This document shows positions 21,706 to 38,237 of a stretch of 64,000 nt of DNA, in pieces (positions within the stretch are counted from its first letter, which is position 1; the number at the start of each line of letters is the position of its first letter). The stretch spans positions 410,509 through 474,508 of the forward strand of contig JALOQK010000002.1 of assembly GCA_025453395.1 (NCBI GenBank), written 5' to 3'. The notes below the pieces were generated by a model, which saw nothing but the letters and a program-made list of their open reading frames with translations, made no database searches and was not told the origin of the DNA. Made by a program: the position numbers and the translations under genes. The stretch is from Candidatus Omnitrophota bacterium (GTDB taxonomy: Bacteria; Omnitrophota; Gorgyraeia; Gygaellales; Profunditerraquicolaceae).

Positions 21706-21709
21706 AGTC

Positions 21710-22276: not shown

Positions 22277-22836
22277 TTAAGTTTCCCTGAAATCGTAAAA
22301 TCCACGATATCATAACTGGATATTTGCCTGCGCTGCATAGCGCCAAGCTCAATATTCGTAAAAGCGCTCATAAAATCGGCGTCCTCTTTGATCTTTGTTA
22401 AAAATTCATTGATAAGAGAAACTTCATCCTTGTCCAGAGAAACAACCGAAGCCTTAAGGATAAATGTATCTTGCGAAACAGATATATCCGTAAACCATAC
22501 CCCGGATGGCAAACTTAACCCCAGACGGTCAAGCTTTCCCGCCCAAAGCGAGTATTTACCGGCTACCGCCTGAAGCGCATTTGTATCCATATTTTTTGAA
22601 TCAAATTCTTTCTTGAAGTCTTCATAAGATTTCCTGTCTTTTTCCAGCATCTTCCATTTATTCTGCAGGGTGAATAAATTCCCGCTTATAAAAATCTGCA
22701 CGCAAAAGAAAATAACGTGCACAAAAATAAGTATCCCGATGATAAGCGGGATTATATACAGAAAAGACTGGATATTAAGCAGGCTTTTCTTTCTATTAAG
22801 CTTTAATTCTTCCGGAAGCAAATCAATTTCTATCAT
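22273..22836 (-). CDS. pilN: Type IV pilus assembly protein PilN
   Basis: Short cytoplasmic N-terminus (IEIDLLPEE), one TM helix and a periplasmic domain, encoded directly after pilM. Confidence 0.6.
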   Translation of the reverse strand: MIEIDLLPEELKLNRKKSLLNIQSFLYIIPLIIGILIFVHVIFFCVQIFISGNLFTLQNKWKMLEKDRKSYEDFKKEFDSKNMDTNALQAVAGKYSLWAGKLDRLGLSLPSGVWFTDISVSQDTFILKASVVSLDKDEVSLINEFLTKIKEDADFMSAFTNIELGAMQRRQISSYDIVDFTISGKLK

Positions 22837-22840
22837 ATTT

Positions 22841-23875
22841 TTATCCGCGCAATGCCAAGCCTACTGCCACAGCCAATTGGCCAGACAAAGATTTTAACTT
22901 TTTTGCATCTAAACCGTCGGCAATAAGTATCCGCTTTAAAGGATCCCAGCCTGATATCTCAATATCCAACAAGCCCGATAACGATTGCGGCAACCCCTCT
23001 AATAAAGCGGTGCCGCCGCTTAAGAATATTTTTTCAACATTTAACGCGCTTTGGCTCTCATAGTAATCAAAAGAAACCCTGATTTCCGTGGCCAGGCTAG
23101 CCAAAACAGGCTCAACGGCAAGTTTTATCTGCTCTATCTTATCATCCGGCGGGGAAACTTTTATTTTTTCAGCAGATGAAAAATCAAGCGAAAGATTTTC
23201 TGCGATCCTATGGGTAAAATTATTCCCGGCAATGGAGATATCACGGCTTAATACAGGAACACCTTCCTCTAGTATGCTTAAGGTAGAATAAGACGCCCCG
23301 ATGTTTAAAAGGGCCACAGTCTTAGGAAGATTGCTTTTTTCTGCTTTAACCTCATTAAAAATAAAAGCGTTTACTACGGCCAAAGCATCGTGGTCCATAA
23401 AGCTTGGGATTAAATTATTCTCGGTGGCTAATTTTACGCGCTGGCTTGTATAATCTTTCTTGGAAGCCGCCACCGCCACAAACATATTGTTATTGGCAGT
23501 ATCATTTTTCAGTATCGCCGCGTCAAGATTTACCTCTTGCGCCGGAAACGGTATATACTTCTGGGCTTCAAATTTTATGGATTTACGCAATTCATCTTCG
23601 GTCATTTTGGGCAGGGTTACATAGCGCACCGTAGTAGATGAGCCGCAAAGAGAAAGATTAACGAATTTTGTATCATTAAAAAAATGAAAAATGGGTTTTA
23701 GGGTTTCCTGTGGGTCTGCTCTTACGGGAACATTATCAAAACCGCATAGCTCTAACAGATTATTCTTGAAAGAAAACTTTACCAGCTTAACGAAACTGGT
23801 TCCCGAGTCCAAACCAATAGATATTCGGGGCTTGATAAAAATTTTTTTTAAATCCAAGACATTAAGTTCTGCCAT
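22841..23875 (-). CDS. pilM: Type IV pilus assembly protein PilM (actin-like ATPase fold)
   Basis: IGLDSGTSFVKLV N-terminal phosphate-1-like motif, ~345 aa. Confidence 0.8.
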   Translation of the reverse strand: MAELNVLDLKKIFIKPRISIGLDSGTSFVKLVKFSFKNNLLELCGFDNVPVRADPQETLKPIFHFFNDTKFVNLSLCGSSTTVRYVTLPKMTEDELRKSIKFEAQKYIPFPAQEVNLDAAILKNDTANNNMFVAVAASKKDYTSQRVKLATENNLIPSFMDHDALAVVNAFIFNEVKAEKSNLPKTVALLNIGASYSTLSILEEGVPVLSRDISIAGNNFTHRIAENLSLDFSSAEKIKVSPPDDKIEQIKLAVEPVLASLATEIRVSFDYYESQSALNVEKIFLSGGTALLEGLPQSLSGLLDIEISGWDPLKRILIADGLDAKKLKSLSGQLAVAVGLALRG

Positions 23876-23889
23876 AAAGAATTAGGTGC

Positions 23890-24144
23890 TTAATTAACCA
23901 GCGGCCCCATAACAGGAGGTTCTTGAACAACGGCCTGGGAATCCGCATCTTTCTTTTTATCTTTATAGATAATCCGCTGCCTATTGGCAGGGACACTATT
24001 TTGCGTTTGCTCAATAACAGTTACATTTTTATTAGAAACTGGGGAGGATTTCTGGGGGCCTTGATTAAACCAACCTATTATCGCTACCGTTACTAAATAT
24101 ATAACCACAATTCCAGCCGCAAATATTATAATCTGCTTCTTCAA
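23890..24144 (-). CDS. Small single-pass membrane protein, hypothetical
   Basis: N-terminal TM helix (IIIFAAGIVVIYLVTVAIIGW) and a polar C-terminus. It lies between the PilX-like gene and pilM. Confidence 0.35.
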   Translation of the reverse strand: MKKQIIIFAAGIVVIYLVTVAIIGWFNQGPQKSSPVSNKNVTVIEQTQNSVPANRQRIIYKDKKKDADSQAVVQEPPVMGPLVN

Positions 24145-24248
24145 ACTTCCTCCTAAAGTATTTGATATAATATTATACTATATTTTAAAGGATTTGCTAC
24201 AACAATTTTCTAGCGTATTCTTTAATTTTGACTTTTGACTTTTTACTT

Positions 24249-25964
24249 TTAAATCCCCATGTCGTGCCATGTTAACCGGCTATCCAATTTCCCATCATCA
24301 AAAACCGCGAAATTGGTCATATACGGAAAATAGGGCGGGGTTGTGCCGTTCAACATGCGCGCGTCATAGATAAAATTCCTGCCATAGCCAGTCAACTGGC
24401 CTGAACCCTGGCTAAAGGTGCCGAATGCCCCATAGAAATCCGTAATTGTGCCGCCTAATAAGGTAACATTGCCGCGGGGAGAGCCCTTATTATAATCATC
24501 AACCGTAAATATCCCATTATGCGCCATGACTACCCCGTGCATCACTAAATTATTAGGCGCAGTCTTGGCGATAATCACATCCCCTCCCCAGGAAAGTATC
24601 CCTAAAACATTGTTATACCCGGTAGCATTTAAAGTAGGAGTAGTATTATAATTCTGGTAAGTAATATTATTGGTAATGTTGATGTCACGCTCGCTTGAAA
24701 CAGTAACCTTGGTATTGCCCTCTACTACCCCGGCAAGGCTGGCGATATCATCATTCACATAGATGAGCACGCCCTCATGGCTTACCCCATCGGGTATTCC
24801 GGTATAAACTTTAGTATTACTGCCGTCAACAACGGTTGTGGTATTGGCCGTATAATTCAAAGTAATTACCTTAGTGGTGCCGGAACGGGTAATAGTATAA
24901 ACCGGGCCGGCCGCTCCAACCGACATAACAATTGTAGGATTGTCATTGCTTTGCCCCTGGTTGCCCCGCACATAAATTCCTCCGGTAACCGCTGTGCCGT
25001 TATTGGGGACAAATATCCCGTTAGTATTATCAGGCATTCCGCCTAAGGCTTGAGTCTTAAGTTGGGTTTGAGTAATTGAAGGCGATAGATTAATTATCCC
25101 GAATCCCCGCGTAAATCCTGCATTAAAAATAGGCTTATCCCGCATGACATCCACGCCGGCAACCATAACCGAATTATAATCCGCGTCTTTTGATACGGGG
25201 TTTCCCAGATTATAAAACTGCGCCTTAGTCTGGTGTTGGGTAACTAATTCCGAGAAGGTAGCGCTGGGATCATTGGCAAAACTAAAACGGTCATTAGTAG
25301 AAACAGGCCCGTTGAAATTTGTATCCGCGGTAAACCAGACAGTTGTGCCTGAAGGAGTAGAGTGATGCGAAGTAAAAAGCGCGAATTTAGCGAAGTTATC
25401 GCGGCGGATGGTTATCTTAAATTCTCCTTCCGAAAGCATAACCTGCCTGGTAACTGACGGATTAGTATTTGTAATATTGCCTTGCGAAATAACAGAATAT
25501 TTATAAGGAAATTCAAATATATCCAGAGTAGCGTTAATAGTAGGCGCGCCATTAGCCTGGACTGAAATAACCGCGGAATAATTTCCTTGAATAATGCCGT
25601 CCAAAGAAGAATTCGCGATAGTTAAAGTCGCAACCCCGGAATTCACCGAGAAAGGCGTCCCGGCATTAGGATAGGCGAAAGCGGATAAAACCCCTAAAGG
25701 GTTTGTGGCATAAGCGCTAAAGGTTGACGAAGTAGTAACTTTTGCTATGCGGGAGTTTATATCAATTCGGATGCGCCGGCGCAATTCGCTTACGGCATGA
25801 TTTGCTCCAGCCTCGGCAAGGCTTAACGCCTGAATAGTATATAAATTCCTGTCCGCGGAGCGTTTCTCAGTAAAAACACCGCTAAAATAAGCTCCTACGA
25901 CAATAAGAAGCACCGCCATAACCATCAAAGAAACAGCTAAAACCATTCCTCTATTGTTATTCAT
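24249..25964 (-). CDS. PilX-N-domain large pilus-associated protein (putative minor pilin or tip adhesin)
   Basis: N-terminal hydrophobic helix plus ...ALSLAEAGANHAVSEL... resembles the PilX N-terminal domain. The remainder is an Asn/Thr/Gly/Ser-rich, beta-like region of ~500 aa. Confidence 0.5.
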   Translation of the reverse strand: MNNNRGMVLAVSLMVMAVLLIVVGAYFSGVFTEKRSADRNLYTIQALSLAEAGANHAVSELRRRIRIDINSRIAKVTTSSTFSAYATNPLGVLSAFAYPNAGTPFSVNSGVATLTIANSSLDGIIQGNYSAVISVQANGAPTINATLDIFEFPYKYSVISQGNITNTNPSVTRQVMLSEGEFKITIRRDNFAKFALFTSHHSTPSGTTVWFTADTNFNGPVSTNDRFSFANDPSATFSELVTQHQTKAQFYNLGNPVSKDADYNSVMVAGVDVMRDKPIFNAGFTRGFGIINLSPSITQTQLKTQALGGMPDNTNGIFVPNNGTAVTGGIYVRGNQGQSNDNPTIVMSVGAAGPVYTITRSGTTKVITLNYTANTTTVVDGSNTKVYTGIPDGVSHEGVLIYVNDDIASLAGVVEGNTKVTVSSERDINITNNITYQNYNTTPTLNATGYNNVLGILSWGGDVIIAKTAPNNLVMHGVVMAHNGIFTVDDYNKGSPRGNVTLLGGTITDFYGAFGTFSQGSGQLTGYGRNFIYDARMLNGTTPPYFPYMTNFAVFDDGKLDSRLTWHDMGI

Positions 25965-25981
25965 CAGCCACCCCTCACTTT

Positions 25982-26584
25982 CTAAAACTCTCCCGCTGGA
26001 GGTTCAGATACGCTTACACTTGAATCAAGATTAGAATTGCGATTGCGTAAAGTAACTTCGGAATCTAAAGAAAAATCATTCTGGTTATGAGTAGTTACGC
26101 TTAACTTTACCACAGGACAAGTTACATCAACCGTAGTACAAGTATATGAAGTGCAATTTGCGCAGCCGCCGTTAAAACTTATGCTGGAAACGCCATTAGC
26201 CACGATTACCGCAGGGTTACTGCCTTCCTTTTTTAACAACCTGGTAGTATCCGTGGGGTCAAGCTTAAAAGTAATTTTATTCAACTGGGTTATTGCGCCT
26301 GAACCATTAAAAACAGGGGCGTAAAAATCAATCCTTTGGTTAGAATCGCTAATTACAGCAGAATAAGTAACGCCCCCTATCAGCCATTGAGCGTTAGCTT
26401 GGCGTAAAATACGGCCAACCTCATTGGTGAGTTTGCGCGCTTGAGCTTGAGAAGTTAAATTCCCCTGCTGGCGTTTCCAACTATTATTGGAATTCGTCAA
26501 CAACGCAAGAACCGCAGTAAATAAAACCAGAAATACCGCTAAAGAAATCACTAACTCAACCAAAGTAAAACTCTTCTTGTTCAT
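25982..26584 (-). CDS. Prepilin-type N-terminal cleavage/methylation domain protein (minor pilin, PilW-like)
   Basis: KSFTLVELVISLAVF prepilin leader/cleavage consensus. The start is trimmed to the internal MNKKSF. Confidence 0.65.
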   Translation of the reverse strand: MNKKSFTLVELVISLAVFLVLFTAVLALLTNSNNSWKRQQGNLTSQAQARKLTNEVGRILRQANAQWLIGGVTYSAVISDSNQRIDFYAPVFNGSGAITQLNKITFKLDPTDTTRLLKKEGSNPAVIVANGVSSISFNGGCANCTSYTCTTVDVTCPVVKLSVTTHNQNDFSLDSEVTLRNRNSNLDSSVSVSEPPAGEF

Positions 26585-26597
26585 TTCTCTCCTTGTG

Positions 26598-27047
26598 CTA
26601 CCTGGACACAAAAGTAATTATCTCAACCGGAGAATCTAAAAACCCGTTGCCATTAGTATCTTCGCTGGACTGCCACTGTCCGTCAAGATTAGTATCTTCT
26701 CCAATGATTCTTCCGCCCTTTGAAACAAAAGATACGGTAATTCTTACTTCTTTTAAATCCGCGTATTCTGTGGCAACAACCTCTACGGCTCCACGCGCGG
26801 TACCAGCTGGAAAACCCGCAACACTAAAACCATCCGTGTCAGTAACAACATTATTAAAATCCATATTCTTTAAGCTTTCCAACTGGGCTTGAGCAGCGTT
26901 ACTTGCCAAAGTGATCTGCCGGATTAAATCCCCCAAAGTCATAAAATTGACATAAAGTAAAAGCATGCCGCTTAAAACAAAGGCCAGCAAAAATCCGCTT
27001 AGCATAGTCTCAATTAAAGTAAATCCATTTTTATTCTTCAAGCGCAT
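26598..27047 (-). CDS. Prepilin-type minor pilin (PilV-like)
   Basis: NGFTLIETMLSGFLLAFVL prepilin motif (G|FTLIE). Confidence 0.65.
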   Translation of the reverse strand: MRLKNKNGFTLIETMLSGFLLAFVLSGMLLLYVNFMTLGDLIRQITLASNAAQAQLESLKNMDFNNVVTDTDGFSVAGFPAGTARGAVEVVATEYADLKEVRITVSFVSKGGRIIGEDTNLDGQWQSSEDTNGNGFLDSPVEIITFVSR

Positions 27048-27056
27048 ACGCCCTCT

Positions 27057-27479
27057 TTATTTCCCAGCCTTAAAACAATTTTCCTGACTAAAAACTCCTG
27101 CCGTAGTAACTGCGTATTTTTTTCTACCGGTAAAATTACAGCGTGCCGGAGCACTAACACAACTATAGCCTGTAGGATCTGTGCGCGGGCATTCCAACAG
27201 ATACCCCCTAAGCGCGCCCTGCGCCGAATAATCTTTATCTAAATATGGCGGTTGTGCCTTTAAAAGCATATCCAAAGACTCTGGATAGGCGCCTAAATGG
27301 TCTTTGGCATAATTCTCCAGCGCCGCGGACACTAATTTTAAAGATGATAAAGCCTCTGATTCATTCTGAGTCAGCATCGACTCCAAAAACTGCCCGATAA
27401 AAATACGCAAGAAAAGAGCAATTACTGCCACAACTATCATTATTGCCACTAAACTTTGCGCTTTCTTATTATCCACCAT
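27057..27479 (-). CDS. Pilin-like membrane-anchored protein without a canonical prepilin cleavage motif
   Basis: N-terminal hydrophobic helix (LVAIMIVVAVIALFL) then a ~100-aa Cys-containing domain. It sits between the minor pilins and the major pilin. Confidence 0.35.
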   Translation of the reverse strand: MVDNKKAQSLVAIMIVVAVIALFLRIFIGQFLESMLTQNESEALSSLKLVSAALENYAKDHLGAYPESLDMLLKAQPPYLDKDYSAQGALRGYLLECPRTDPTGYSCVSAPARCNFTGRKKYAVTTAGVFSQENCFKAGK

Positions 27480-27555
27480 TATACCTTTCTTAGAAATAAG
27501 GCGAAGACACTTTATGTATCTTCGCCTATTTCGTATTACCTGAACAAACTAATTG

Positions 27556-28017
27556 CTATTGCCCTACCTGTGCAGCAGCGGTGGAACATACATCTCCAGT
27601 CGTAGCCACAGCACCAGCAGTAGAACCTCTCATAATCCCGGTGTGATCAATACAGAAATACCTGTTACCAGTTGTACCCGGAGTACTCGGATCAGCAGTC
27701 GCAGTAAAAGTATTGATAGCATCCGTTCCTGCTGTAACAGCATACACATATCCGTTCTTAGTTGTGCCGACAAAACCAGTAATAAAAGCTGGGTTTGCCC
27801 CTGTCAAAGCAGCAAGGTTTGGCGGATATACAGGAGAAACCTGTGCTGTACGATAGGTCTCTGCGGCTGTCGCCACTGCCCTTAAACCAGCAATAGCGTT
27901 TGATTCATTAGCAGTTAACCTAGTTCTTAACAAACCCGGTATAGCGATTGTTGCCAATAAGGCTATGATAGCGACAACAATCATGATTTCCACAAGCGTA
28001 AAACCTTTTCTGTTCAT
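27556..28017 (-). CDS. pilA: Type IV major pilin (PilA/PilE-like)
   Basis: MNRKGFTLVEIMIVVAIIALLATIAIPGLLRTRLTANES is a canonical class III signal and alpha1 helix. The Thr/Ala/Gly-rich variable region ends in a C-terminal Cys pair. Confidence 0.8.
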   Translation of the reverse strand: MNRKGFTLVEIMIVVAIIALLATIAIPGLLRTRLTANESNAIAGLRAVATAAETYRTAQVSPVYPPNLAALTGANPAFITGFVGTTKNGYVYAVTAGTDAINTFTATADPSTPGTTGNRYFCIDHTGIMRGSTAGAVATTGDVCSTAAAQVGQ

Positions 28018-28509
28018 GTGAAATCCCCCTTCCTAAGGTATAATTAACAACCTTTTTGTTTCGCGCTCTTTGGAAGGTAATCCCCTCTTTCCGGTTACTA
28101 TTCTTTACTATAATGATTTCTCTTATTGTAACCTTAAGAGCCAATTACCCTTAGCGCCCGTTGTCCACCTTAAAATAATTATCTCACCCCCTTTCTTTTT
28201 GTCAAGTAAAAAATATGAAGCCCTTCCTATTCAAATCTTATGGCGGAATCCCGACCCCTAACATTCACCTAATTCGGCTAGGGCGTCGGGATAAATAAAA
28301 ACGCCCTAAACACTTGATTTTAGGGCGCAAAATTATTTAAATATTTAAGCACTTTTTTGGCAACGCAGCCCTCCGACTGTGGACATCGGAGCTGTCGCTT
28401 TGCGCCCTAACATTACTGTTAGTTTGCCCTTTTCAATAAGGATGCTAAACCTCTTATTTAAAATATAGCACAAAAAAAGGCCATTTTCAAAGAAATCTTT
28501 TAATGTTCC

Positions 28510-28968
28510 TTACTGGCCTAATTGCTTAGCAGTATTTGTGCAAGTTGTCCCAGCTGTAAAAACGCTAGCGGTAGCGCCTCTCATAATTCCGGTATGATCA
28601 ATACAAAAATACCTGATGCCGGTTATCCCATAGGCATCCGGTCTAGCAGTAGCGCTAAATGTATTTACCGGATCACTCCCACAAGCAACATCAAAAACAT
28701 AACCGGATTTAGTAGCGCTTGTAAAACCGGTAACAAAGGGAGGAACGCTTCCTATTAAATCAGTCAATGCCGCAGGATATGAAGGAGAAACCTGCGCTGC
28801 TCTGTAGGATTCCGCACCCGTAGCGATTGATCTTAAACCAGAAATAGCCTTAGATTCATTAGCCATAAGCCTGGTCCTTAATAAAGAAGGTATGGAAATC
28901 GTAGCTAATAAGGCAATGATAGCAACCACAACCATAATCTCTACTAAGGTAAAACCGCGAAATCTCAC
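28510..28968 (-). CDS. pilA: Type IV major pilin, second paralogue
   Basis: MRFRGFTLVEIMVVVAIIALLATISIPSLLRTRLMANES. It shares the conserved C-terminal ...RYFCIDHTGIMRG...GQ with the 27556-28017 paralogue, and the middle region diverges. Confidence 0.8.
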   Translation of the reverse strand: MRFRGFTLVEIMVVVAIIALLATISIPSLLRTRLMANESKAISGLRSIATGAESYRAAQVSPSYPAALTDLIGSVPPFVTGFTSATKSGYVFDVACGSDPVNTFSATARPDAYGITGIRYFCIDHTGIMRGATASVFTAGTTCTNTAKQLGQ

Positions 28969-29093
28969 TATCCCTCCTTTTTAATATGTAGTTATTATTA
29001 CATTTATAAATAAACCTGTCAAGAGCGTCTACTTTATACGCAATAATCTGAAATAGGTTTACATATTTATCGCGATATGCTAAACTAACCGGA

Positions 29094-31421
29094 ATGAAAA
29101 ACCGAGCAACTCTCTTTTATCTGCTAAGTATTTTCATAATTACAATTGCACCTTTTGCCGTTATTCTCTCTGGGAAACCTGATTTTGTTATTGGCATAGC
29201 TAATCATGATGTAGCTGAATTAGAGATCCCCTTACGCAGCCTGCAATTTAGCTACCTCTTAAAAGGCATTATCACGCAATGGAACCCCTATTTATTTTCT
29301 GGCATCCCAGCTGCTGTAGACTGCGCCTTCTACCCACTTAATATAGTACATCTTTTTTTAAATATCCCCACAGCCATAAACCTGTTAATAATGGCCCATT
29401 TATTTCTTGGGGCCTTATTTATGTTTTTCTTCCTTAAGAAAATCACAAAGGAAGACTTCTCTGCTTTTATTGGGGCGCTTATTTTCTCACTTTCCTCTAT
29501 TTTCATTACCCGCATCTTTGCTGGCCACTTATCAGTACTTATCAATTTAGCATGGTTACCCTGTTTATTTTTATTAACCGAGAAATCAATCACAAATAGA
29601 AAAGCTATTTATTATTTACTGTTGACATTGGTATGGGCAATAAGTATTATTGGAGGACATATACAATTTAGCTTTATAACCGCTTTTGGAATTTTTATCT
29701 ACACAATCAACCTGCTTATTAAAGAAAAAACGTCCGGAAAACTTAATGCGCTCTTAAGAGTATTTCTCATACCACTTGCGTTTGGAATAGGAATTGCTGC
29801 TTTTAAAATATTTCTTCTTAAAGAGCAATCAACTGACTCCCTGCGAATAGATAACAACTTGTGGAATTTTTCTTTCAGTATGCCTCCAGAGAATATCGCC
29901 GGCCTGTTTTCTCCGGGGTTCTTTGGCTGGCCCCAAGAAATATACTGGGGCAAATGGAATCCATGGGAAAGCTCTATATATATAGGTATGCTTCCTCTTT
30001 TTCTTACTTTCTTTGCCTTTGCTAATAAAGATAGGCATGCCCGAATTATGGGTATTATCTCTATTGTATCCCTGATATTAGCCATGGGGCCGTATTTGCC
30101 TTTTTACTCCAAGATATTTAAATACCTTTTAGGTGTAAACATATTCCGCTCACAAGGAAGATTCCTTTGTTTAACCGCGTTCTCATTATCCACTTTAGCA
30201 TCCATTGGATGTAAAAAACTTCTTGAGACACCTGAAGATTCGGTACACAAAGTAAAAACTAAGCTTTATATTATCTTTATCGCCATGGTTGCGATTATTT
30301 CTTTTTTCCTTGTCATAAGTTTAAAATACACATCATGGCATGAGATGTGGAGAATATTAAATACTTACGAGAAACTCTCCAGCGCCTTTAGCGATAACAT
30401 CCACTGCTTTTTCAATTTTATCTGGGGCAGAGACATTTTTCAGGAAAGTCTAACCCGAAGCGTTATATTAAGTATACTATCGTTGAGTGCGATAATTCTT
30501 CTCTTACGCAAAAGCGTACCAAGATACTTTACAAAAACCCTTTTTAGTATTCTTATTCTTGTTGATCTGTTAGCTTTTTCCTCTAAATATTACAAAGTTT
30601 TCTCTTACCGAGATTTACGCGCTCCACAAGAAGCGTTTAATTTCTTAAAGAAGAATACCGGACAGAACCGGATATTAGTTCTAGACGGAATAAATCTTAA
30701 TTCCGGCATGCTTAGCAATATACCCAGCATGGGGGGATATTACACTCTTCTTCCCAAGCACTATAACCGCTTTATTAATTTTACTCAAAATCAGGATTTA
30801 GATTCACCTCTTGCTCTAGACAATATCCAAAAGTTTCCACCTCTTTTTGCTCTTGTCAACCTTAAATACATCATAAGCTCTAAACCGGATTTAAAAGGAT
30901 TGACTAAAACTTACTCATCGGGTCCGTTAAACATATTTGAGACAAATTATAAACTACCTAAGGCATTTATCGCGCATAAAGCAATTGTCAAAGATACTAC
31001 AGAAGAGATCTTAAACGCGCTTAATACTACCGGGTTTAATTTTAGAGAAACGGTGATCATAGAAAAAACTATTCCCGAAATGAATACGCTAAAGGAAAGC
31101 CTCTCCCCTGAAACGCTTCCAGAAATTGTTTCTTACGATGCGGATAAAATCATTATAAAGGCAAGCCTCCATGAACCGGGAATTCTTGTTTTATGCGACA
31201 ACTATAACCCAAACTGGCAAGCTCAAGTAAACGGTATTCCCGCTAAAGTATTCCCAGTAGATTACATTTTGCGCGCGGTTTTCCTCCCAAAAGGAGAACA
31301 TACGGTCATTTTTACATATAAACCATTGTCTTTTAGAATCGGAATATCTATTTCTGCTCTATTCTTAATAATCTGGATTATTACCTTAGCAAGGATTATT
31401 TTATGCGAAAAAAAGCATTAA
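29094..31421 (+). CDS. YfhO-family polytopic membrane glycosyltransferase (GT-C fold)
   Basis: 775 aa with many TM helices. The WNPYLFSGIPAAVDCAFYPLN motif matches the conserved YfhO signature (WNPY.FGG.P..A.PQ...YPLN). A large C-terminal extracytoplasmic domain follows. Confidence 0.65.
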   Translation: MKNRATLFYLLSIFIITIAPFAVILSGKPDFVIGIANHDVAELEIPLRSLQFSYLLKGIITQWNPYLFSGIPAAVDCAFYPLNIVHLFLNIPTAINLLIMAHLFLGALFMFFFLKKITKEDFSAFIGALIFSLSSIFITRIFAGHLSVLINLAWLPCLFLLTEKSITNRKAIYYLLLTLVWAISIIGGHIQFSFITAFGIFIYTINLLIKEKTSGKLNALLRVFLIPLAFGIGIAAFKIFLLKEQSTDSLRIDNNLWNFSFSMPPENIAGLFSPGFFGWPQEIYWGKWNPWESSIYIGMLPLFLTFFAFANKDRHARIMGIISIVSLILAMGPYLPFYSKIFKYLLGVNIFRSQGRFLCLTAFSLSTLASIGCKKLLETPEDSVHKVKTKLYIIFIAMVAIISFFLVISLKYTSWHEMWRILNTYEKLSSAFSDNIHCFFNFIWGRDIFQESLTRSVILSILSLSAIILLLRKSVPRYFTKTLFSILILVDLLAFSSKYYKVFSYRDLRAPQEAFNFLKKNTGQNRILVLDGINLNSGMLSNIPSMGGYYTLLPKHYNRFINFTQNQDLDSPLALDNIQKFPPLFALVNLKYIISSKPDLKGLTKTYSSGPLNIFETNYKLPKAFIAHKAIVKDTTEEILNALNTTGFNFRETVIIEKTIPEMNTLKESLSPETLPEIVSYDADKIIIKASLHEPGILVLCDNYNPNWQAQVNGIPAKVFPVDYILRAVFLPKGEHTVIFTYKPLSFRIGISISALFLIIWIITLARIILCEKKH

Positions 31422-33175
31422 TATTTATTATTATACTCTGCGCTGTTTTACCATATCTAAACACTTTAAATGCCAACTTTGTCTGGGATGACGAAGTACA
31501 ACTTGTGCAAAACCCATACATGCAATCTTTTAAATACTTAAAAGATTTCTTTACGCATGATTTTTGGCACGTAGGCATTAACAAACTAGACACCGCTTAC
31601 TACCGGCCGCTTTTTGCCGCCAATCTTATGAGTCAATACGTTCTCTGGGGCAAAAATCCCTTTGGGTACCACCTAATCAACATCCTTTTACATTGCCTAA
31701 TAACCTTGTTAATTTTCAAAATCTTACTTTTGTTAACATCCGACGAAATAATATCTTTTACCGCAAGCCTTATTTTTGCTGTCCATCCAATTCACACAGA
31801 ATCTGTTTCTTTTATAGCTGCAATTGTGGACCTGCAGACTTTTATTTTCATGCTTCTTACTTTCCTCTGTTATATTCTATACCAAAGAAACAGCCGTAAA
31901 ATATTACTTGTGACTGGAGCTGTTTCTTTTGTTGCCGGGCTATTAACCAAAGAAATGGCTGTGATAACACCGTTTCTTATTCTCATAAAGGATGTTTTTA
32001 TCCCGAAAGAAAACAACAAAAAACAAAACATTGTAGCGTATTTTATCTTCTTCTTGATACTCGCAGCATATTTAATGTTTCGCGTTCATCTTTTTGGCAT
32101 AAAACCAAACGATGGGAATCTAGTGTCTTCAAATTTTATCCCCGGGAATACCCCCTATTGGAGATTTCTTACTGTACCTGCGATTATCGCCCGTTACATA
32201 GGGCTTCTTTTTATCCCATACAACATGACTGCAGATTATTTATTTAAAGCCAATAACTCTATTTGGAATATCTATGTTATCTCGGGAATGCTTATTATTT
32301 TACTTTGCATATTCGTAATTATTTTTTTGCGTAAGAAACAGGCGCTGTTATCATTTGCCATCGCATGGTTTGCATTAACCATCCTGCCGGTAAGTAATAT
32401 TTTCCCCCAGGGAAATATCTTTGCAGAGCGTTTCCTCTATATCCCATCACTTGGATTTTGCATCCTAATGGCAGTTGTTTTCTCTTATTTTCCAAAGAGG
32501 CCTCTGGTAACCTGTTTGTTTTACTGCTGGATAATAAGTATGGGCCGCTTAACATGGGAAAGAAATATCGTTTGGAAAAATGATTTAAATTTGTGGATAG
32601 ATACTGTTTCCAAAGTACCCAATAGCCCCAGGGCACATCTAAATCTTGCCGAACAATATTTTCTATATGGAAAAACAAATGAAGCAATATTAGAATTGGA
32701 TACTGCAATAAAGATTTTACCTAATTATAAACAAGCCTATAACGGCTTAGGCCTTGTATTGTATAAGACAGGCGATATAAATGCAGCTATTGCTGCCTAC
32801 CAAAAAGCCATAGCTATTGATCCTAAATATAACGAAGCCTACAACAATATGGCGGCGGCATTAATCGAAAATAAACAATACAAAGAAGCTATAAACGCCC
32901 TAGAAATTGCCATAAACTATAATCCCTATTTAACTTTTGCTTATTACAATCTGGGACAAGCATATGACAAATTAGGAATACCGGATAAGGCAATTGCTGC
33001 TTACGAAAAGTTTATTGCAATAAAGCCTGAATACGCAGTAATATATGCGGATATGGGCAGGCTTTATTACCAAGAAGGCAATACTAAAAAAGCTAAAGAA
33101 TGCTGCCTTAAAGCGCTTGAGCTTGCTCCGGGACACATGCCAGCGCAAGAAATAATAGATAAAATCAGGGATTAG
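31403..33175 (+). CDS. TMTC-like GT-C glycosyltransferase with C-terminal TPR repeats (protein O-mannosyltransferase-like)
   Basis: FVWDDE acidic motif in the first extracytoplasmic loop and ~11 TM helices. At least 5 C-terminal TPR units follow ([32 protein letters not shown]...). Confidence 0.6.
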
Positions 33176-34103
33176 ACTGAAACCAGTGGATGGTTGTTTC
33201 CAAGCCTTCTTGGAGTTTGATTTTTGGCTGCCAACCAAGCAGGCGCCTGGCGCGGGAGATATCGGGTTTTCTTTGTTTGGGGTCATCTTGGGGAAGCGGC
33301 TTATAGATAATCTTGCTTTTAGAATTGGTAATCTTAAGGACCAAATCCGCCAATTCCATAATAGTAAACTCTCCGGGATTGCCTAAATTAACCGGGTCAT
33401 GGAACTTTTTCCCCATTAGGCGGACAATCCCATCCACCAAATCCGAAACATAACAGAAACTGCGGGTTTGCGCGCCCTTTCCATACACAGTCAAAGGTTT
33501 ATTATTCAACGCCTGATAAATAAAATTCGGGACCACCCTGCCATCATTAATTCTCATAAATTCGCCGTAGGTATTGAAAATACGAATTATCCTTGTATCT
33601 ACTTTGTGCGTTCTGTGGTAAGCCATAGTCATTGCTTCGGCAAAACGTTTTGCCTCATCATAGCATCCGCGGATGCCCACGCTATTTACATTTCCCCAGT
33701 AACTTTCCGGTTGAGGATGGACTAATGGATCCCCGTAAACTTCAGAAGTAGATGCCAATAAGAATCCGGCTTTGTTTTTCATCGCCACGCCTAAAGCATT
33801 ATGCGTGCCTAAAGCTCCGGCCTTTAAGGTCTGTATGGGGTGTTTTAGATAATCATCGGGAGATGCGCAAGAAGCAAAATGCAGGACAAAATCCACCTTT
33901 TCCTTTATAGATATGTACTTACTAACATCATGTTTTACAAAACAAAAATGTTTATTTTTGATAATCCCCTCTATATTATCCAAGGAACCGGTAATTAAAT
34001 TATCCATACAAATAACCTGCCAACCGTCTTTAAGCAAACGGTCGCATAAATGCGAGCCGATAAACCCCGCTCCGCCAGTAACAAGAACTTTAGAATAACG
34101 CAT
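33165..34103 (-). CDS. uxs: UDP-glucuronate decarboxylase (UDP-xylose synthase)
   Basis: [13 protein letters not shown]...[34 protein letters not shown] is a near-canonical UXS signature. Confidence 0.85.
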
Positions 34104-34495
34104 TTTCAGCTATCAGCTTTCAGCTATCAGCTTTCAGCAAAGCTTTAATCTCTTTATGAAACCATAAAGCATTGCCGAAAGCTCATCGCATTGTGAACTT
34201 CTCATAAGAAGAACGTAAAGCAATATTAAGAAACCTTTTAAACTCTAAATCAGAACCTGAACCACTGCCTTCAGCTATATTAAGCGCTATTGACACGGCC
34301 GCTCTTCTAACTTGAGAAGTCAAACCATAACATTCTGATTGCGGGAATTTACTGGTTTTTAAATACACCCGTTCAATAAAATCCATTGCCTTAGACCATA
34401 CTTGTAGCTTTTTAAACTTTTGTATTTCCATTTTTATTATTGTCTTTGTTTTTAGCTGACGGCTGAAGGCTGACGGCTGATAGCTGAAAATATTC
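34104..34495. mobile_element. Palindromic cassette element, copy B (~95% identical to 1682-2078). Heptamer TIRs flank a four-helix-bundle gene.
   Basis: Left arm ~34104-34137 and right arm ~34450-34490. The right arm is read through by the upstream epimerase ORF. Confidence 0.65.
34183..34431 (-). CDS. Four-helix-bundle protein (23S rRNA IVS protein / Avd-like family), copy B
   Basis: 82 aa, 75 of 82 residues identical to the 1761-2009 product. Confidence 0.75.
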   Translation of the reverse strand: MEIQKFKKLQVWSKAMDFIERVYLKTSKFPQSECYGLTSQVRRAAVSIALNIAEGSGSGSDLEFKRFLNIALRSSYEKFTMR

Positions 34496-35425
34496 TACCG
34501 TTATTTTTAACCCCTCCGTGAAATTGACTTGCGGCTTAAAACCCAGTAACTTCTTGCTCAATGTCAAATCTGCTTTAGTGCGAAAAACATCGCCTTGGCG
34601 TTTGGGCAAAAATACAGGTTTTATCTTTTTGCCAAGTATTTTATTAAGAATACTGGCTAACTCTAAAACAGAATAATCCCTGCCCCCTGCCACATTAAAA
34701 ACTCCGGATTTAACTTTCCCCTTTAAGGCGCAACTTGCGGCCAATAAATTAGCTTGGACCGCATTGGCCACAAAAGTAAAATCCCGCGATTGCCTGCCGG
34801 TGCCATAAATTGGCATAGCGTTATCACGCAAAAGACAGTCAATGAATTTTGGCACTACTACCGCGTATTCATCATCAAGCGACTGCCGGGGCCCAAAAAC
34901 ATTAAAATAGCGTAAAGATACCGCCGGCACCCCATAATGCAAACTAAAAATCTTGCAATAATATTCCCCTGCAAGCTTACTTAATGCATAAGGCGAAATA
35001 GGCCCGGGGAAAAAAGATTCCTTCTCTGGAAACTTGCTGACATCGCCATACACAGAGCTTGAAGAGGCAAAAACAAACGCTTTCACGTTGTTTTCCCGTG
35101 AAGCCTCTAACATATTAAGAATCCCGCCTATATTTACCTTATTATACACATCAGGATTCTTCATGGACTTAGGCACGCTTCTCAAAGCCGCCTGATGAAA
35201 AACCACATCTACCCCTGAAACAGCCTTGCGGCAGGTATCTCTATCGCAAATATCGCCTTTTATTATCTTAACTTTACCGGATACCCCGGACAAATTATCA
35301 AGCTTGCCGCTTGAGAAATTATCCAAAACCCGCACTTGGCAATTATTTTTTACAAGCGCATCAACAATGTGCGAGCCGATAAACCCGGCGCCACCAGTAA
35401 CCAGTACTTTCTTATTAAAAAACAT
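34412..35425 (-). CDS. NAD-dependent epimerase/dehydratase, UDP-GlcNAc/UDP-Glc 4-epimerase family (WbpP/GalE-like)
   Basis: [26 protein letters not shown] and SSSSVYGD motifs. The last ~24 codons (QLSAVSLQPSAKNKDNNKNGNTKV) are encoded by the repeat arm, so the native C-terminus is probably shorter. Confidence 0.75.
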   Translation of the reverse strand: MFFNKKVLVTGGAGFIGSHIVDALVKNNCQVRVLDNFSSGKLDNLSGVSGKVKIIKGDICDRDTCRKAVSGVDVVFHQAALRSVPKSMKNPDVYNKVNIGGILNMLEASRENNVKAFVFASSSSVYGDVSKFPEKESFFPGPISPYALSKLAGEYYCKIFSLHYGVPAVSLRYFNVFGPRQSLDDEYAVVVPKFIDCLLRDNAMPIYGTGRQSRDFTFVANAVQANLLAASCALKGKVKSGVFNVAGGRDYSVLELASILNKILGKKIKPVFLPKRQGDVFRTKADLTLSKKLLGFKPQVNFTEGLKITVEYFQLSAVSLQPSAKNKDNNKNGNTKV

Positions 35426-35640
35426 TTAGAAAATATCCTTTTATTATCAAATAACCAAACACCAAATCTCAAACACCAAACAAATCCCAATAATCAATTA
35501 CCAATTTACCAAACAAGTTTGGTTTTTGGTGTTTGGTTTTTGGTTATTATTTGGTTATTTAACATTTGGTTATTGGTTATTTCCTACTTTTACCTTGTAA
35601 TTTTTACTTTTGCCTTTTTACTTTTGACTTTTTACTTTCT
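35426..35640. repeat. Long strand-skewed imperfect palindrome (CA-rich arm / TG-rich arm, ccaaacacc units) followed by ttttacttttg direct repeats
   Basis: accaaacaccaaatctcaaacaccaaac...tttggtttttggtgtttggtttttgg forms an inverted repeat of ~60 nt arms. It ends in tttttacttttgcctttttacttttgactttttacttt. Confidence 0.6.
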
Positions 35641-36940
35641 ATAGCCTCTCTACCTTATCACTCTTCACGCCCTTATACACATTTCGCGCGTCAAAAATAA
35701 AACGGCTGTTTTCCAGCAAGAATTTATAATCAACATTGGAATGATCAGTGCCAATGATAACGCAATCAAAACTAGATAAATTACTCTTGGTTAATTCTAT
35801 AGACTTAAGGTCAATATTATTGACTTTTAAATACGGGATCAGGGGATCATAATAAGAAACTTTGGCTTTATGTTTCTTAAGGCTATCTATAATATCCAAG
35901 GACGGAGACTTACGCAGGTCCTTTATATCTTTTTTATAAGTAACGCCTACAACTAAAATATTCGCCTTCCCAATATTAACACCTTTAACCTTTAAACTAT
36001 GCCCCGCGCGGCTAACCACATAATCAGGCATATTAGAGGTTACATCCGACGCTAATTTAATGAACCGCGAGCTAAAACCGTGGTGCTTAGCTTTCCAATA
36101 CAAATATAACGGATCCTTCCCAATACAATGTCCGCCCACCCCCGGCCCCGGATAAAAAGGCATAAATCCAAAAGGCTTGGTGGACGCCGCCTCCACAATC
36201 TCCCAGATATCCATCTTCATCTTATGCGCCATCATGGCGATTTCATCAATTAAGCCGATATTGATCAGGCGAAAAGTATTTTCTAAAAGCTTTACGGTCT
36301 CTGCCACGCGCGCGGAAGAAACCGGAACAACCTGCTCAATAATATTGGAGTAAACAAGCTGGCCCATTTTAGTTGCGGTATCGCTTAAGCCGCCTATGAC
36401 CTTAGGGATCTTGGGAAGCGGGTATTTAATGTTACCCGGGTCTATTCTTTCAGGAGAAAAACAAAGGAAGAAATCCCTATCATGCACAAGAGCCTGCTTA
36501 TTAAAAATAGGCAAAATCACCTCTTGCGTTGTCCCGGGATAAGTGGTACTTTCCAGAATAACTAAAGCCCCCTTCTTAATATTCTTTGAAATCTGGCCAA
36601 CCGCGCTTTTGATATAAGAAATATCCGGGGTATATTTATTTTTTAAGGGCGTTGGGACACAGATAAGTATTACATCCGCATCCTTAACTGCGGAGAAATT
36701 ATCATAACCATGAAAACGCCCGGTGCCTATGACGCTTTTTAATTCCTCTGTGGTAACATCCGTAATATAGGACCTTTTTTCTTTGATCCCGGCTAAGCGG
36801 TCCTTATCAAGCTCAACGCCAGAAACAAAAAATCCATTCTTGGCAAATTCAATTGCCAAAGGAAGCCCCACATAACCAAGCCCCACCACCGCGATTTTCG
36901 CTTCTTTTAAACTTAATCTCTTGGAAAATGAATCAAACAT
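35639..36940 (-). CDS. Nucleotide-sugar dehydrogenase (UDP-N-acetyl-D-mannosamine/glucosamine dehydrogenase family, WecC/WbpA-like)
   Basis: IAVVGLGYVGLPLA N-terminal NAD fold, 433 aa, placed next to ugd. Confidence 0.75.
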   Translation of the reverse strand: MFDSFSKRLSLKEAKIAVVGLGYVGLPLAIEFAKNGFFVSGVELDKDRLAGIKEKRSYITDVTTEELKSVIGTGRFHGYDNFSAVKDADVILICVPTPLKNKYTPDISYIKSAVGQISKNIKKGALVILESTTYPGTTQEVILPIFNKQALVHDRDFFLCFSPERIDPGNIKYPLPKIPKVIGGLSDTATKMGQLVYSNIIEQVVPVSSARVAETVKLLENTFRLINIGLIDEIAMMAHKMKMDIWEIVEAASTKPFGFMPFYPGPGVGGHCIGKDPLYLYWKAKHHGFSSRFIKLASDVTSNMPDYVVSRAGHSLKVKGVNIGKANILVVGVTYKKDIKDLRKSPSLDIIDSLKKHKAKVSYYDPLIPYLKVNNIDLKSIELTKSNLSSFDCVIIGTDHSNVDYKFLLENSRFIFDARNVYKGVKSDKVERL

Positions 36941-38237
36941 GCTTTCCTCTTCCTATGCCTATATATGAAAACCCATTCTGCTTGATTATCTGGGGATCAT
37001 AGATATTGCGCCCATCCACAATAAGCGGCCTTTTCATTATTTTTCTTATTCTCTTGAAATCAAGCTCTTTAAATTCCGGCCATTCAGTAGCTAAGATCAG
37101 GCAGTCGCTTGCCTTGGCTACAGAATAAATATCATCAACAAAAACCACGCCTTTTAATTGTTTACTCAAATGTTTTCTTCCCACGCACGGATCATATACT
37201 TTGATCTTGGCCCCTTCCAAAAGAAGCATCTTAATAATATCTACTGCCGGAGAATTACGGATGTCATCAGTATTCGGTTTAAATGATAAGCCTAAAACCC
37301 CGATATTTTTATCTTTGACAATCCATAGTTTCTGCTTTATTTTATCCAAAAAGAAATCTTTTTGAGTTATATTGATATTCTTTACCTCTCTTAAAAGAGC
37401 AAAATCATATCCCAGCTTTTCCGATATCCTTAAAAAAGCGTCAAGGTCCTTAGGAAAACATGACCCACCGTAGCCGATACCGGCGTTAAGAAATGCCTGG
37501 CCGATTCTTTTATCAAGGCCCATGCCTAAAGCAACTTCAGTAACATCTGCGCCTACTTTATCGCAGATACGCGAAATAGCATTAATAAAAGAAATCTTGG
37601 CAGCTAAAAATGAATTGGAAGCGTGCTTTATCAATTCCGCGGACTTTATATCCGTAACTACGATCGGGGCGTTTAACGGCTTATAAAGGCCAGATAAAAT
37701 GTTTTCCGCTTTCTTTGATTCTACGCCGATAACGATCCTATCCGGATGCATAAAATCATGGATCGCCTGCCCCTCTTTTAGAAACTCCGGGTTAGAAGCT
37801 ACGTCAAATTTTATCTTTTTGCGAACATAAGTTTGAATAGTGTGTTTTACCCACTGCCCAGTTTCCACAGGGACAGTTGACTTTTCAACTACTAATTTAT
37901 AACCATCCATATTGCGCGCGATATTTCTGGCCACATCTTCAATGCCGGTTAGGTCCGCTTCGCCATTTTCTAAAGAAGGCGTGCCTACCGCAAGAAATAT
38001 AACTTCGGAGCGCCTAACCGCGTCTTTTATGTTAGAGGTAAATACTAAACGTTTTTTACGCGCATTGGCCAAAATAAGCTCTTCTAACCCCGGCTCATAA
38101 ATAGGAATCTTGCCCTTTTTAAGCAAAGCTATCTTATGCGCGTTATTATCCGCGCAAATCACACAATTGCCTAATTCCGCGAAACACGCTCCGGTAACTA
38201 ACCCTACATAGCCTGAACCAATAATTGTTATATTCAT
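36933..38237 (-). CDS. ugd: UDP-glucose 6-dehydrogenase
   Basis: MNITIIGSGYVGLVTGACFAELGN start with a catalytic Cys region (GGSCFPKD). Confidence 0.85.
   Translation of the reverse strand: MNITIIGSGYVGLVTGACFAELGNCVICADNNAHKIALLKKGKIPIYEPGLEELILANARKKRLVFTSNIKDAVRRSEVIFLAVGTPSLENGEADLTGIEDVARNIARNMDGYKLVVEKSTVPVETGQWVKHTIQTYVRKKIKFDVASNPEFLKEGQAIHDFMHPDRIVIGVESKKAENILSGLYKPLNAPIVVTDIKSAELIKHASNSFLAAKISFINAISRICDKVGADVTEVALGMGLDKRIGQAFLNAGIGYGGSCFPKDLDAFLRISEKLGYDFALLREVKNINITQKDFFLDKIKQKLWIVKDKNIGVLGLSFKPNTDDIRNSPAVDIIKMLLLEGAKIKVYDPCVGRKHLSKQLKGVVFVDDIYSVAKASDCLILATEWPEFKELDFKRIRKIMKRPLIVDGRNIYDPQIIKQNGFSYIGIGRGKHV

Follow-up and report, generated by a model that had tools for sequence, protein, structure and literature searches.

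Two membrane glycosyltransferase genes lie divergent from a type IV pilus operon

We analyzed 64,000 nucleotides of a metagenome-assembled genome (MAG) of a Candidatus Omnitrophota bacterium (GCA_025453395.1, contig JALOQK010000002.1, positions 410,509-474,508, forward strand). This stretch is called the window, and coordinates are counted from its first base unless a locus is named. Our subject is a pair of plus-strand genes for membrane glycosyltransferases of the GT-C type, which a preliminary description had proposed to be a candidate module for O-glycosylation of the type IV pilins encoded beside them. The first gene encodes a YfhO-family protein. The second encodes a protein with a C-terminal tetratricopeptide repeat (TPR) domain, which we call TPR-GT-C. 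The features at the locus are:

29094..31421, plus strand: YfhO-family GT-C membrane glycosyltransferase, 775 aa (PF09586)
31403..33175, plus strand: TPR-GT-C, a TMTC-like membrane glycosyltransferase by predicted structure, with a C-terminal TPR domain, 590 aa (TPR repeats, GT-C fold)
28510..28968, minus strand: type IV pilin B, pilA paralog, 152 aa, putative acceptor (N_methyl motif)
27556..28017, minus strand: type IV pilin A, pilA paralog, 153 aa, putative acceptor (N_methyl motif)
28355..28437, minus strand: c-di-GMP-I-GGC riboswitch aptamer in the pilin A leader (Rfam RF03167)
28301..28328, minus strand: terminator-like hairpin and T-run directly after the aptamer, likely the expression platform
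28969..29093, no strand assigned: divergent intergenic region between pilin B and yfhO, 125 bp, with promoter-like sites on both strands
19562..27479, minus strand: remaining type IV pilus operon, encoding p140, two minor pilins, a DUF4900 protein, PilM, PilN, PilO, a PilP-like protein and the PilQ secretin (Pfam)

The open reading frames (ORFs) are arranged as first described, with the 775-aa YfhO protein and the 590-aa TPR protein divergent from two pilin genes. The TPR-GT-C gene overlaps the yfhO stop by 19 bases, and the 125 bases that separate the pair from pilin B contain a promoter-like TTGACA-17-AATAAT at 29022-28994 (minus strand) and a promoter-like TTTACA-17-TAAACT at 29058-29086 (plus strand). 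The pair had also been described as the only plus-strand genes in the window. This fits our annotation, in which all other plus-strand ORFs of at least 130 aa overlap minus-strand genes with strong Pfam matches. GC skew was negative (-0.155 and -0.157) over 28001-32000, like that of the minus-strand flanks. The strand switch thus leaves no mark in the skew, and this speaks against an assembly artifact or an inversion of very recent date.

The first protein belongs to the YfhO family

The YfhO model PF09586 matched residues 79-638 with 90.1 bits against a cut-off of 28.5 (E=1.7e-25), and by this Pfam match the family assignment holds. Hydropathy analysis gave 11 hydrophobic segments, a 255-aa hydrophilic domain (residues 498-752) and a last membrane helix at residues 753-771. 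This is the layout of B. subtilis YfhO, in which many N-terminal helices come first and the final two enclose a large extracytoplasmic domain (PMC5836110). All residues that are invariant in an alignment of eight diverse full-length relatives (A1), including Asp39, are kept by the window protein, and a search of YfhO against PDB sequences gave no match. Glycosylation of teichoic acids in Firmicutes is the sole demonstrated activity of YfhO (PMC5836110). A teichoic acid is an unlikely acceptor for window YfhO, because its host has outer membrane machinery (PilQ and an LptD-like protein).

The second protein has a GT-C fold and a TMTC-like architecture

The second protein had been described as TMTC/PMT-like from an FVWDDE loop motif and TPR repeats. 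The loop lies after the first membrane helix (F26-V-W-D29-D30-E31), and the repeats span residues ~403-585 (TPR_1 E=3.9e-31). No Pfam family matched the N-terminal 400 residues, even at E=10, and a PDB sequence search with a profile of this region gave no match. Of the Pfam models for the two expected families, DUF1736 (PF08409) matched no member of the TPR-GT-C family, and PMT_2 (PF13231) matched 2 of 13 members and a few homologs. Since Pfam was silent on the N-terminus, we tested the TMTC/PMT likeness via structure. With 39 homologs, AlphaFold2 modeled the full protein at a pLDDT of 91.6 and the N-terminal 406 residues at 91.0. Because the full-length protein returned TPR proteins in a Foldseek/PDB profile search, the N-terminal 406 residues were modeled alone instead. 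With this model the top 36 matches were all GT-C enzymes (best E=1.5e-4; query TM-score 0.36-0.57), among them STT3, PglB, AglB, Pmt4, ArnT, DPY19, Pmt1/2, ALG9, AftA and ALG3.

The putative catalytic residues are conserved. D29-D30 is found in 38 of the 39 aligned homologs, and Y67-R68-P69, H128-P129-x-H131-x-E133, D143, K183-E184, P329 and E342-R343-x-x-Y346 are likewise near-invariant. TMTC proteins have seven motifs, M1-M7: DD, SHKSYRP, RxD, KE(T/Q)xxT, DW, PxxP and ERxxY (PMC7801869). M1 (D29-D30), the YRP core of M2 and M7 (E342-R343-x-x-Y346) are present in TPR-GT-C, and K183-E184-M is a near match to M4. Two further motifs are approximate: M5 reads D278-Y279, with an acidic residue in just 24 of 39 homologs, and M6 reads P329...P335, with a different spacing. 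In all, five of the seven motifs can be recognized. From the positively charged loops (LRKKQ and FPKRP) and the helix order of the model, we predict a topology of 11 helices that would place the TPR domain and both motif loops (DD and ERxxY) in the periplasm.

As modeled, TPR-GT-C resembles an enzyme of the TMTC/PMT/ArnT type and has the architecture of a TMTC. Because it fails the tests with DUF1736 and PMT_2, we call it TMTC-like rather than TMTC. Of the earlier assignment, the GT-C fold, the TPR repeats and the DD loop were borne out by structure and sequence.

Related loci carry the genes inside type IV pilus operons

Adjacency within one genome alone is statistically meaningless, whereas conservation in relatives is meaningful. 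Word-indexed protein searches returned 35 relatives of YfhO, the best at 36% identity, and thousands of relatives of TPR-GT-C in more than 2,300 clusters, often several per contig. We collected 172 loci from the contigs of the best matches and from species-representative genomes and JGI metagenomes scanned with a YfhO alignment. The scan used an alignment of two sequences (A2), since A1 had no stretch conserved enough for scanning. Loci were annotated by phmmer with the window proteins and by a prepilin-signal pattern.

Close orthologs had usable flanks on eight contigs (L001, L005, L165, L167/L168, L169, L170 and L171). In all eight, the genes lie beside or inside a type IV pilus operon, on one strand and with gaps of 0-100 bases. 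A third gene recurs in these loci. It encodes a 419-aa fusion, here GT2-MT, of a DPMS-like GT2 domain and a class I methyltransferase (L165:8766-10025; also in L001, L005, L006, L167 and L169-L172). The gene orders are:

L001: pilin, YfhO, GT2-MT, TPR-GT-C, p140, pilin, minor pilins, PilMNOPQ
L005: two pilins, TPR-GT-C, YfhO, GT2-MT, TPR-GT-C, pilin, minor pilin, DUF4900, PilM, N, P, Q
L165: UDP-glucose dehydrogenase (UGDH), TviB-like, TviC-like, UDP-xylose synthase (UXS), TPR-GT-C, pilin, GT2-MT, TPR-GT-C, YfhO
L167/L168: pilin, split TPR-GT-C, GT2, YfhO, GT2-MT, TPR-GT-C, toxin-antitoxin pair, four pilins, PilX, PilMNOPQ, RNase G
L169: PilB, PilB, response regulator, PilC, GT2-MT, TPR-GT-C, TPR-GT-C, pilins, PilMNOPQ, RNase G
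L170 and L171: PilB, PilB, response regulator, PilC, GT2-MT, two TPR-GT-C genes, contig end

Four further loci were uninformative, L172 being cut on the side of the expected pilus genes and L006, L085 and L166 being short contigs. YfhO orthologs of 37-40% identity are found in the pilus operons of L001, L005, L165 and L167, and another is found in L172. No YfhO was seen in L169, nor in L170 and L171, whose contigs stop after the second TPR-GT-C gene. The TPR-GT-C orthologs inside the pilus operons are 37-44% identical to the window protein.

The pilus genes themselves support the comparison. The window operon (19562-28968, minus strand) is transcribed in the order pilin B, pilin A, p140, two minor pilins, DUF4900, PilM, PilN, PilO, PilP-like and PilQ, and this order from p140 to PilQ recurs in L001, L005, L167 and L169. 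RNase G comes after PilQ in the window, in L167 and in L169, and this shared arrangement confirms the orthology of the loci. Pilin A shares 43% identity with the L001 pilin that lies upstream of YfhO. The p140 gene (27057-27479, minus strand) encodes 140 aa with a hydrophobic N-terminal helix, no G/FTLxE cleavage motif and no Pfam match. It is kept beside the cassette or the pilins in L001 (6055-6471; E=7e-38) and L167 (13018-13434; E=4e-44), and it may be an uncleaved, membrane-anchored pilin-like component.

The window proteins form the outgroup, being 37-44% identical to the other orthologs, which are 44-70% identical among themselves. Given this identity and the rearranged gene order, the linkage has outlived considerable divergence and at least one rearrangement. 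The conserved core is the GT2-MT fusion with one or two TPR-GT-C genes, and YfhO is frequent but optional. The unit is therefore not the YfhO/TPR pair that had been put forward. The preliminary description had named conservation of the GT-C genes in relatives lacking pilins as evidence against a role in pilin modification. We found the opposite, with eight contigs linked to pili, and this embedding supports the proposed pilin O-glycosylation module, for which the function itself is inferred. The window holds an atypical version of the cassette, in which the GT-C pair is inverted relative to the pilins, GT2-MT is absent and a block of UDP-sugar genes is kept.

Two gene pairs were seen in the L167/L168 locus. 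A HEPN/nucleotidyltransferase pair (12282-12976) lies between the cassette and the pilins, and a RelB/ParE pair (2162-2622) lies upstream of the first pilin.

The pilins are rich in serine and threonine

Both pilins match N_methyl (PF07963) and TIGR02532 and have the G/FTLxE cleavage-methylation motif followed by a hydrophobic helix; they are 65% identical to each other. The earlier observation that they are Ser/Thr-rich was borne out in their globular parts. After residue 55, Ser and Thr make up 23% of pilin B and 22% of pilin A, compared with 10.9% in the long ORFs of the window. This is about twice the level of the local proteome, which is suggestive and consistent with glycosylation and proves nothing. 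An A(T/D)P-x-(S/T)-x-G-x-TG loop is common to the window pilins and the pilins of related loci; it too is consistent with pilin glycosylation and proves nothing.

The 490-base gap between the pilin genes contains a full-length c-di-GMP-I-GGC aptamer (28355-28437, minus strand), which matched RF03167 with 61.1 bits against a gathering score of 59 (E=6.8e-13). A promoter-like site precedes the aptamer and the terminator-like hairpin with its T-run (28301-28328) follows it. This order is expected of a leader controlling pilin A, and the predicted riboswitch likely does so. In L169, a c-di-GMP-I aptamer (11974-12100, plus strand; RF01051, 40 bits) is at the corresponding place, after the final TPR-GT-C gene and ahead of the first pilin. 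We also observed a pair of neighboring genes for GGDEF diguanylate cyclases at 41296-43568 (minus strand), one of which also encodes a GAF domain, about 13 kb from the pilin with the putative riboswitch. In L169-L171, a GGDEF gene and PilB ATPases with MshEN domains precede the cassette.

Sugar-donor genes in the window and in the related loci

A four-gene nucleotide-sugar block is convergent with the TPR-GT-C gene, and a further GT2 gene lies at the other side of the pilus operon:

33165..34103, minus strand: UDP-glucuronate decarboxylase (UDP-xylose synthase), convergent with the TPR-GT-C gene (human UXS1 match)
34412..35425, minus strand: WbpP/WbgU/TviC-like 4-epimerase of UDP-N-acetylhexosamine or its uronate form, UDP-HexNAc(A) (ortholog in L165)
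35639..36940, minus strand: TviB/WecC-like UDP-HexNAc 6-dehydrogenase (TIGR03026, 404 bits)
36933..38237, minus strand: UDP-glucose 6-dehydrogenase (TuaD model, 562 bits)
5775..6569, minus strand: DPMS/ArnC-like GT2 (PDB 5mlz E=6e-17, ArnC E=3e-12)

The UDP-xylose pathway reported earlier was confirmed, as both the UDP-glucose dehydrogenase (562 bits to the TuaD model) and the UXS were found, the latter matching human UXS1 over its full length (E=9e-106). The block is syntenic with the cassette in L165 (E=1e-134 to 1e-210) and absent from the other loci. The UXS ortholog of L165 (E=8e-160) lies directly upstream of the cassette there, and the UDP-glucose dehydrogenase ortholog matched with E=1e-210. 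Between the window epimerase and UXS genes is an 82-aa ORF (34183-34431, minus strand) that overlaps the epimerase stop. The TviB-like dehydrogenase of L165 (1460-4204) is 914 aa long and contains an intein (Intein_splicing and LAGLIDADG_3).

The GT2 domain of the cassette fusion matched Pyrococcus DPMS (5mlz, E=1.2e-25), then ArnC and GtrB, and it is by homology a predicted polyprenyl-phosphate glycosyltransferase. The product of the fusion is possibly a methylated polyprenyl-phosphate sugar. GT2-MT is much better conserved than the GT-C proteins, at 60-88% identity among its closest, mostly Omnitrophota-labeled, homologs. Relatives ~50% identical are annotated in Chloroflexi and Woesearchaeota, and more than 4,000 clusters match at E<=1e-20.

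A GT2 partner accompanies YfhO in L001, L005, L006, L085, L165, L167/L168 and L172. No GtrB/CsbB-like GT2 lies beside window yfhO, the nearest being 23 kb off. That gene, at 5775-6569, sits in a separate cluster of GT2, Wzx and radical-SAM genes and is only 27-31% identical to the cassette GT2 domain. The GtrB-like synthase that had been noted in the window is thus present as a DPMS/ArnC-like gene, but it is distant in both position and sequence from its cassette counterpart. On homology, it is possibly a polyprenyl-phosphate-sugar synthase for the window GT-C enzymes.

Distant YfhO genes are also found beside pilins

To place the cassette in the wider family, we examined 160 distant YfhO loci (~21-30% identity), excluding the cassette orthogroup. 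Pilin-like ORFs were roughly tenfold denser close to distant YfhO genes, with 0.32 per 10 kb in the nearest 1 kb and 0.03 per 10 kb at a distance of 5-10 kb. Within 1 kb, 9 pilin-like ORFs were observed compared with 0.9 expected (Poisson P=5e-7, which is indicative only, because pilins cluster, so that ORF counts are not independent, and because the pilin detector was home-made). Counted by locus, 7 had such an ORF compared with ~1 expected. Within 5 kb, all 15 pilin-like ORFs were on the YfhO strand. The distant YfhO genes beside pilins include those of L029 (Elusimicrobiota), L083 (Planctomycetes), L035 and L061 (other Omnitrophota) and L119, where the order is pilin, YfhO, PilM. A DPMS/GtrB-like GT2 within 3 kb, the classical CsbB-YfhO arrangement, was found in 70 of the 160 loci, and a TPR-GT-C neighbor in 11. 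Tandem arrays of three to four TPR-GT-C paralogs before GT2 and/or YfhO occur in L007 (1-12361) and L015 (3441-12346), from Binatia and Auribacterota MAGs.

A pilus-dedicated glycosylation cassette is the probable interpretation

Taken together, we propose that the two plus-strand genes are probably the GT-C part of an extracytoplasmic O-glycosylation cassette that is dedicated to the pilus and conserved in one Omnitrophota lineage. From the genes we infer the pilin as acceptor, the O-linkage, the sugar, the division of labor between the GT-C enzymes and the donor source in the window genome. The proposed mechanism rests on the logic of three-component polyprenyl-phosphate glycosylation (PMC11127046; PMC5836110). 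A cytoplasmic DPMS-like GT2 would load a sugar, possibly methylated, from a nucleotide sugar onto polyprenyl phosphate, and the lipid-linked sugar would be flipped to the periplasmic face. There, the TMTC-like TPR-GT-C would attach it to Ser/Thr residues of the pilin, either ahead of pilus assembly or in its course, with the periplasmic TPR domain of the enzyme recognizing the folded pilin, as in TMTCs. YfhO, as an optional second GT-C enzyme, would add a further sugar or serve other sites. The UGDH/UXS block and the pair of UDP-HexNAc dehydrogenase and epimerase would probably supply the nucleotide sugars. In the window, the cassette would have been inverted and would have lost its own GT2-MT. 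Without GT2-MT in the cassette, the donor would have to be made by a GT2 encoded elsewhere, possibly that at 5775-6569.

More tentatively, we propose a broader model, which we regard as a serious possibility short of probable: that bacterial TMTC-like TPR-GT-C enzymes are protein-specific O-glycosyltransferases, that one Omnitrophota orthogroup of this very large family is a dedicated pilin glycosyltransferase, part of a cassette of GT2-MT, TPR-GT-C and optionally YfhO placed within the pilus operon, with YfhO acting on a glycoprotein, and that the pilin is under a c-di-GMP riboswitch.

Several observations weigh against a cassette dedicated to pilins. The support is computational, the organism is uncultivated, and the Ser/Thr richness of the pilins is merely suggestive. 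In the window, the inverted GT-C pair is consequently not co-transcribed with the pilins. Wherever the DNA of an ortholog locus covers its position, GT2-MT is present; it is absent from the window, where tblastn found no ortholog or remnant near 29-33 kb; in the 64 kb, the search returned a distant GT2 (5739-6548) and a weak methyltransferase match (62214-62561). Of the top 120 GT2-MT homologs, none came from a contig as long as that of the window, a result that leaves room for a copy on another contig of the genome. A GtrA-like flippase (PF04138) was not among the Pfam matches of any cassette locus. In TPR-GT-C itself, motif M3 reads I141-V-D143 and has lost the Arg that 30 of 39 relatives keep (R141). 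The TPR-GT-C family is very large and multi-copy, and most paralogs are not linked to pili. L007 and L015, two loci with complete flanks that encode YfhO relatives of 30-37% identity, have no pilus genes nearby, so the GT2/YfhO/TPR-GT-C trio also stands alone. Finally, a YfhO-like protein, P0014 (24% identity; L004:8313-13266), is encoded within the series LptC, LptA-like, YfhO, LptB-like (an ABC ATPase), a setting that hints at a lipopolysaccharide (LPS)-related role for some YfhO relatives in diderms.

Alternative explanations

The cassette could also be a general system for periplasmic protein O-glycosylation with many acceptors, like PglL/PglO of Neisseria, that happens to be encoded at the pilus locus and has pilins as at most one target. 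Omnitrophota and other phyla contain many TPR-GT-C genes, in multiple copies, trios of GT2, YfhO and TPR-GT-C without pilus genes occur in L007, L024, L027 and L088, and TPR domains can accommodate diverse partners. However, the orthogroup of the window proteins (E<1e-90) is pilus-embedded wherever flanks are usable, while the weaker paralogs mostly are not, and the one-strand placement between PilC and the pilins in L169-L171 is typical of a dedicated accessory function. We consider a general system unlikely, noting that it overlaps with the cassette proposal.

A second alternative is an Arn-like modification of an envelope glycolipid or polysaccharide (lipid A/LPS or another surface glycan), with the pilins near only because surface structures are encoded in one neighborhood. 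The window pair is not co-oriented with the pilins and is convergent with a UDP-sugar block that includes an ArnA/UXS-type UDP-glucuronate decarboxylase, and an LptD-like gene comes after the block. ArnT is among the structural matches, one YfhO relative sits among Lpt genes as described above, and known YfhO proteins glycosylate teichoic acids rather than proteins (PMC5836110). Against this, seven other loci have pilus genes on both sides of the cassette or adjacent to it, without UDP-sugar or Lpt genes nearby, and an Arn-like role fits the window alone and not the loci with the cassette between PilC and the pilins. That the acceptor is a protein is suggested by the TPR domain and by the TMTC-like architecture. 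An envelope role for the pair is thus quite improbable.

The TPR domain allows a third possibility, that the TPR membrane protein is mainly a pilus assembly factor for the secretin (PilF/PilW/Tgl-like) and not an enzyme. Below the score thresholds, its TPR region resembled PilW (TIGR02521, E=4.6e-22) as well as Tgl (E=1.5e-19), and Pfam matches revealed no separate PilF/Tgl gene in the window pilus operon. These TPR matches are generic, since MamA, NlpI and OGT score similarly, whereas the GT-C catalytic motifs are near-invariant and a polyprenyl-phosphate GT2 is always found with the TPR-GT-C gene in relatives. We therefore rejected a PilF/Tgl-like pilotin as the main role of TPR-GT-C and regard it as very unlikely. 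Chance adjacency with no functional link is hardly credible: a single divergent gene pair in one genome weighs little, but the linkage is kept across eight divergent contigs, and pilin genes are enriched beside distant YfhO genes (Poisson P=5e-7 per ORF; 7 loci vs ~1).

Relation to known glycosylation systems

The proposed cassette differs from the best-known pilin glycosylation systems. TfpO/PilO and PglL/PglS modify pilins in the periplasm with lipid-linked donors and are often encoded beside pilA; they are O-oligosaccharyltransferases of the Wzy_C type that transfer preassembled oligosaccharides linked to undecaprenyl diphosphate. No Wzy_C/O-antigen ligase domain was found by Pfam in YfhO or TPR-GT-C, and unlike those enzymes the cassette would be of the polyprenyl-monophosphate GT-C type.

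Compared by function and not by sequence, the closest analog is TfpW of P. aeruginosa Pa5196, a group IV pilin accessory gene product. TfpW has a GT-C fold, is encoded beside the major pilin gene, as the cassette is, and arabinosylates Pseudomonas pilins (Kus et al. 2008, as cited in PMC5836110; bioRxiv 10.1101/2020.04.19.049825). By the same accounts it O-glycosylates pilin Ser/Thr in the periplasm from a polyprenyl-phosphate monosaccharide, a reaction that we propose for the cassette. In contrast to the cassette, TfpW belongs to another GT-C family, has no TPR domain, acts as a single enzyme with its D-arabinofuranose pathway encoded elsewhere, and comes from a proteobacterium.

Each part of the cassette has a counterpart in other systems. 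CsbB-YfhO of B. subtilis and GtlA-GtlB (Lmo1079) of Listeria combine a YfhO GT-C enzyme with a GtrB-like GT2 that makes a C55-P-sugar for extracytoplasmic transfer (PMC5836110). Their acceptors are lipoteichoic and wall teichoic acids of Gram-positive bacteria, whereas window YfhO is found in a diderm, at a pilus operon and with no adjacent GT2. Eukaryotic TMTC1-4 resemble TPR-GT-C in their ~11 membrane helices, DD loop, luminal (here predicted periplasmic) TPR domain, motifs M1 and M7, the core of M2 and a near match to M4 (PMC7801869). Known solely as O-mannosyltransferases of cadherins and protocadherins, they use a polyprenyl-type phosphate sugar donor and a specific folded protein acceptor (PMC7801869). 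TPR-GT-C differs in lacking DUF1736, in its altered M3 (I141), in its approximate M5 and M6 and in being bacterial; the likeness may be that of a shared clan and does not speak for orthology. In GtrA/GtrB/GT-C three-component systems (PMC11127046) and in actinobacterial Ppm1-PMT, a GT2 makes the polyprenyl-phosphate sugar and a GT-C enzyme transfers it outside, as proposed here. The cassette is unlike these systems in having no GtrA-like gene, a GT2 fused to a methyltransferase, two GT-C families and a place in a pilus operon.

A YfhO/TMTC pair for pilin glycosylation had been presented as undescribed. In full-text literature searches, no publication came up that connects pilins with YfhO, TMTC-like or TPR-GT-C enzymes, and the main Omnitrophota genomics paper makes no mention of glycosylation or glycosyltransferases; a GT-C enzyme beside pilA does have a precedent in TfpW. 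We conclude that the principle, pilus-linked glycosylation by a GT-C enzyme from a lipid-phosphate sugar, is known, and that the enzyme families and the cassette architecture are new, as a prediction for a system conserved within an uncultivated phylum.

Implications

These Omnitrophota are ultra-small and possibly host-dependent, and the type IV pilus is probably the main contact organ of these cells. Elsewhere, pilin glycosylation alters adhesion, pilus bundling and phage susceptibility (e.g. bioRxiv 10.1101/150227). A compact, conserved cassette could also serve glycoengineering. If the proposal is true, it would be the third independent recruitment of lipid-phosphate-sugar glycosyltransferases to pilins. 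YfhO and the TMTC-like proteins with fused TPR repeats (more than 2,300 clusters), two large and little-understood GT-C families, would then each gain a substrate in bacteria of the Gram-negative type, and the cassette would provide a tractable bacterial model of TPR-guided, protein-specific O-glycosylation. On the broader model, both families would have their first function in diderm bacteria, and there would be a prokaryotic counterpart of the domain-specific O-glycosylation carried out by eukaryotic TMTCs.

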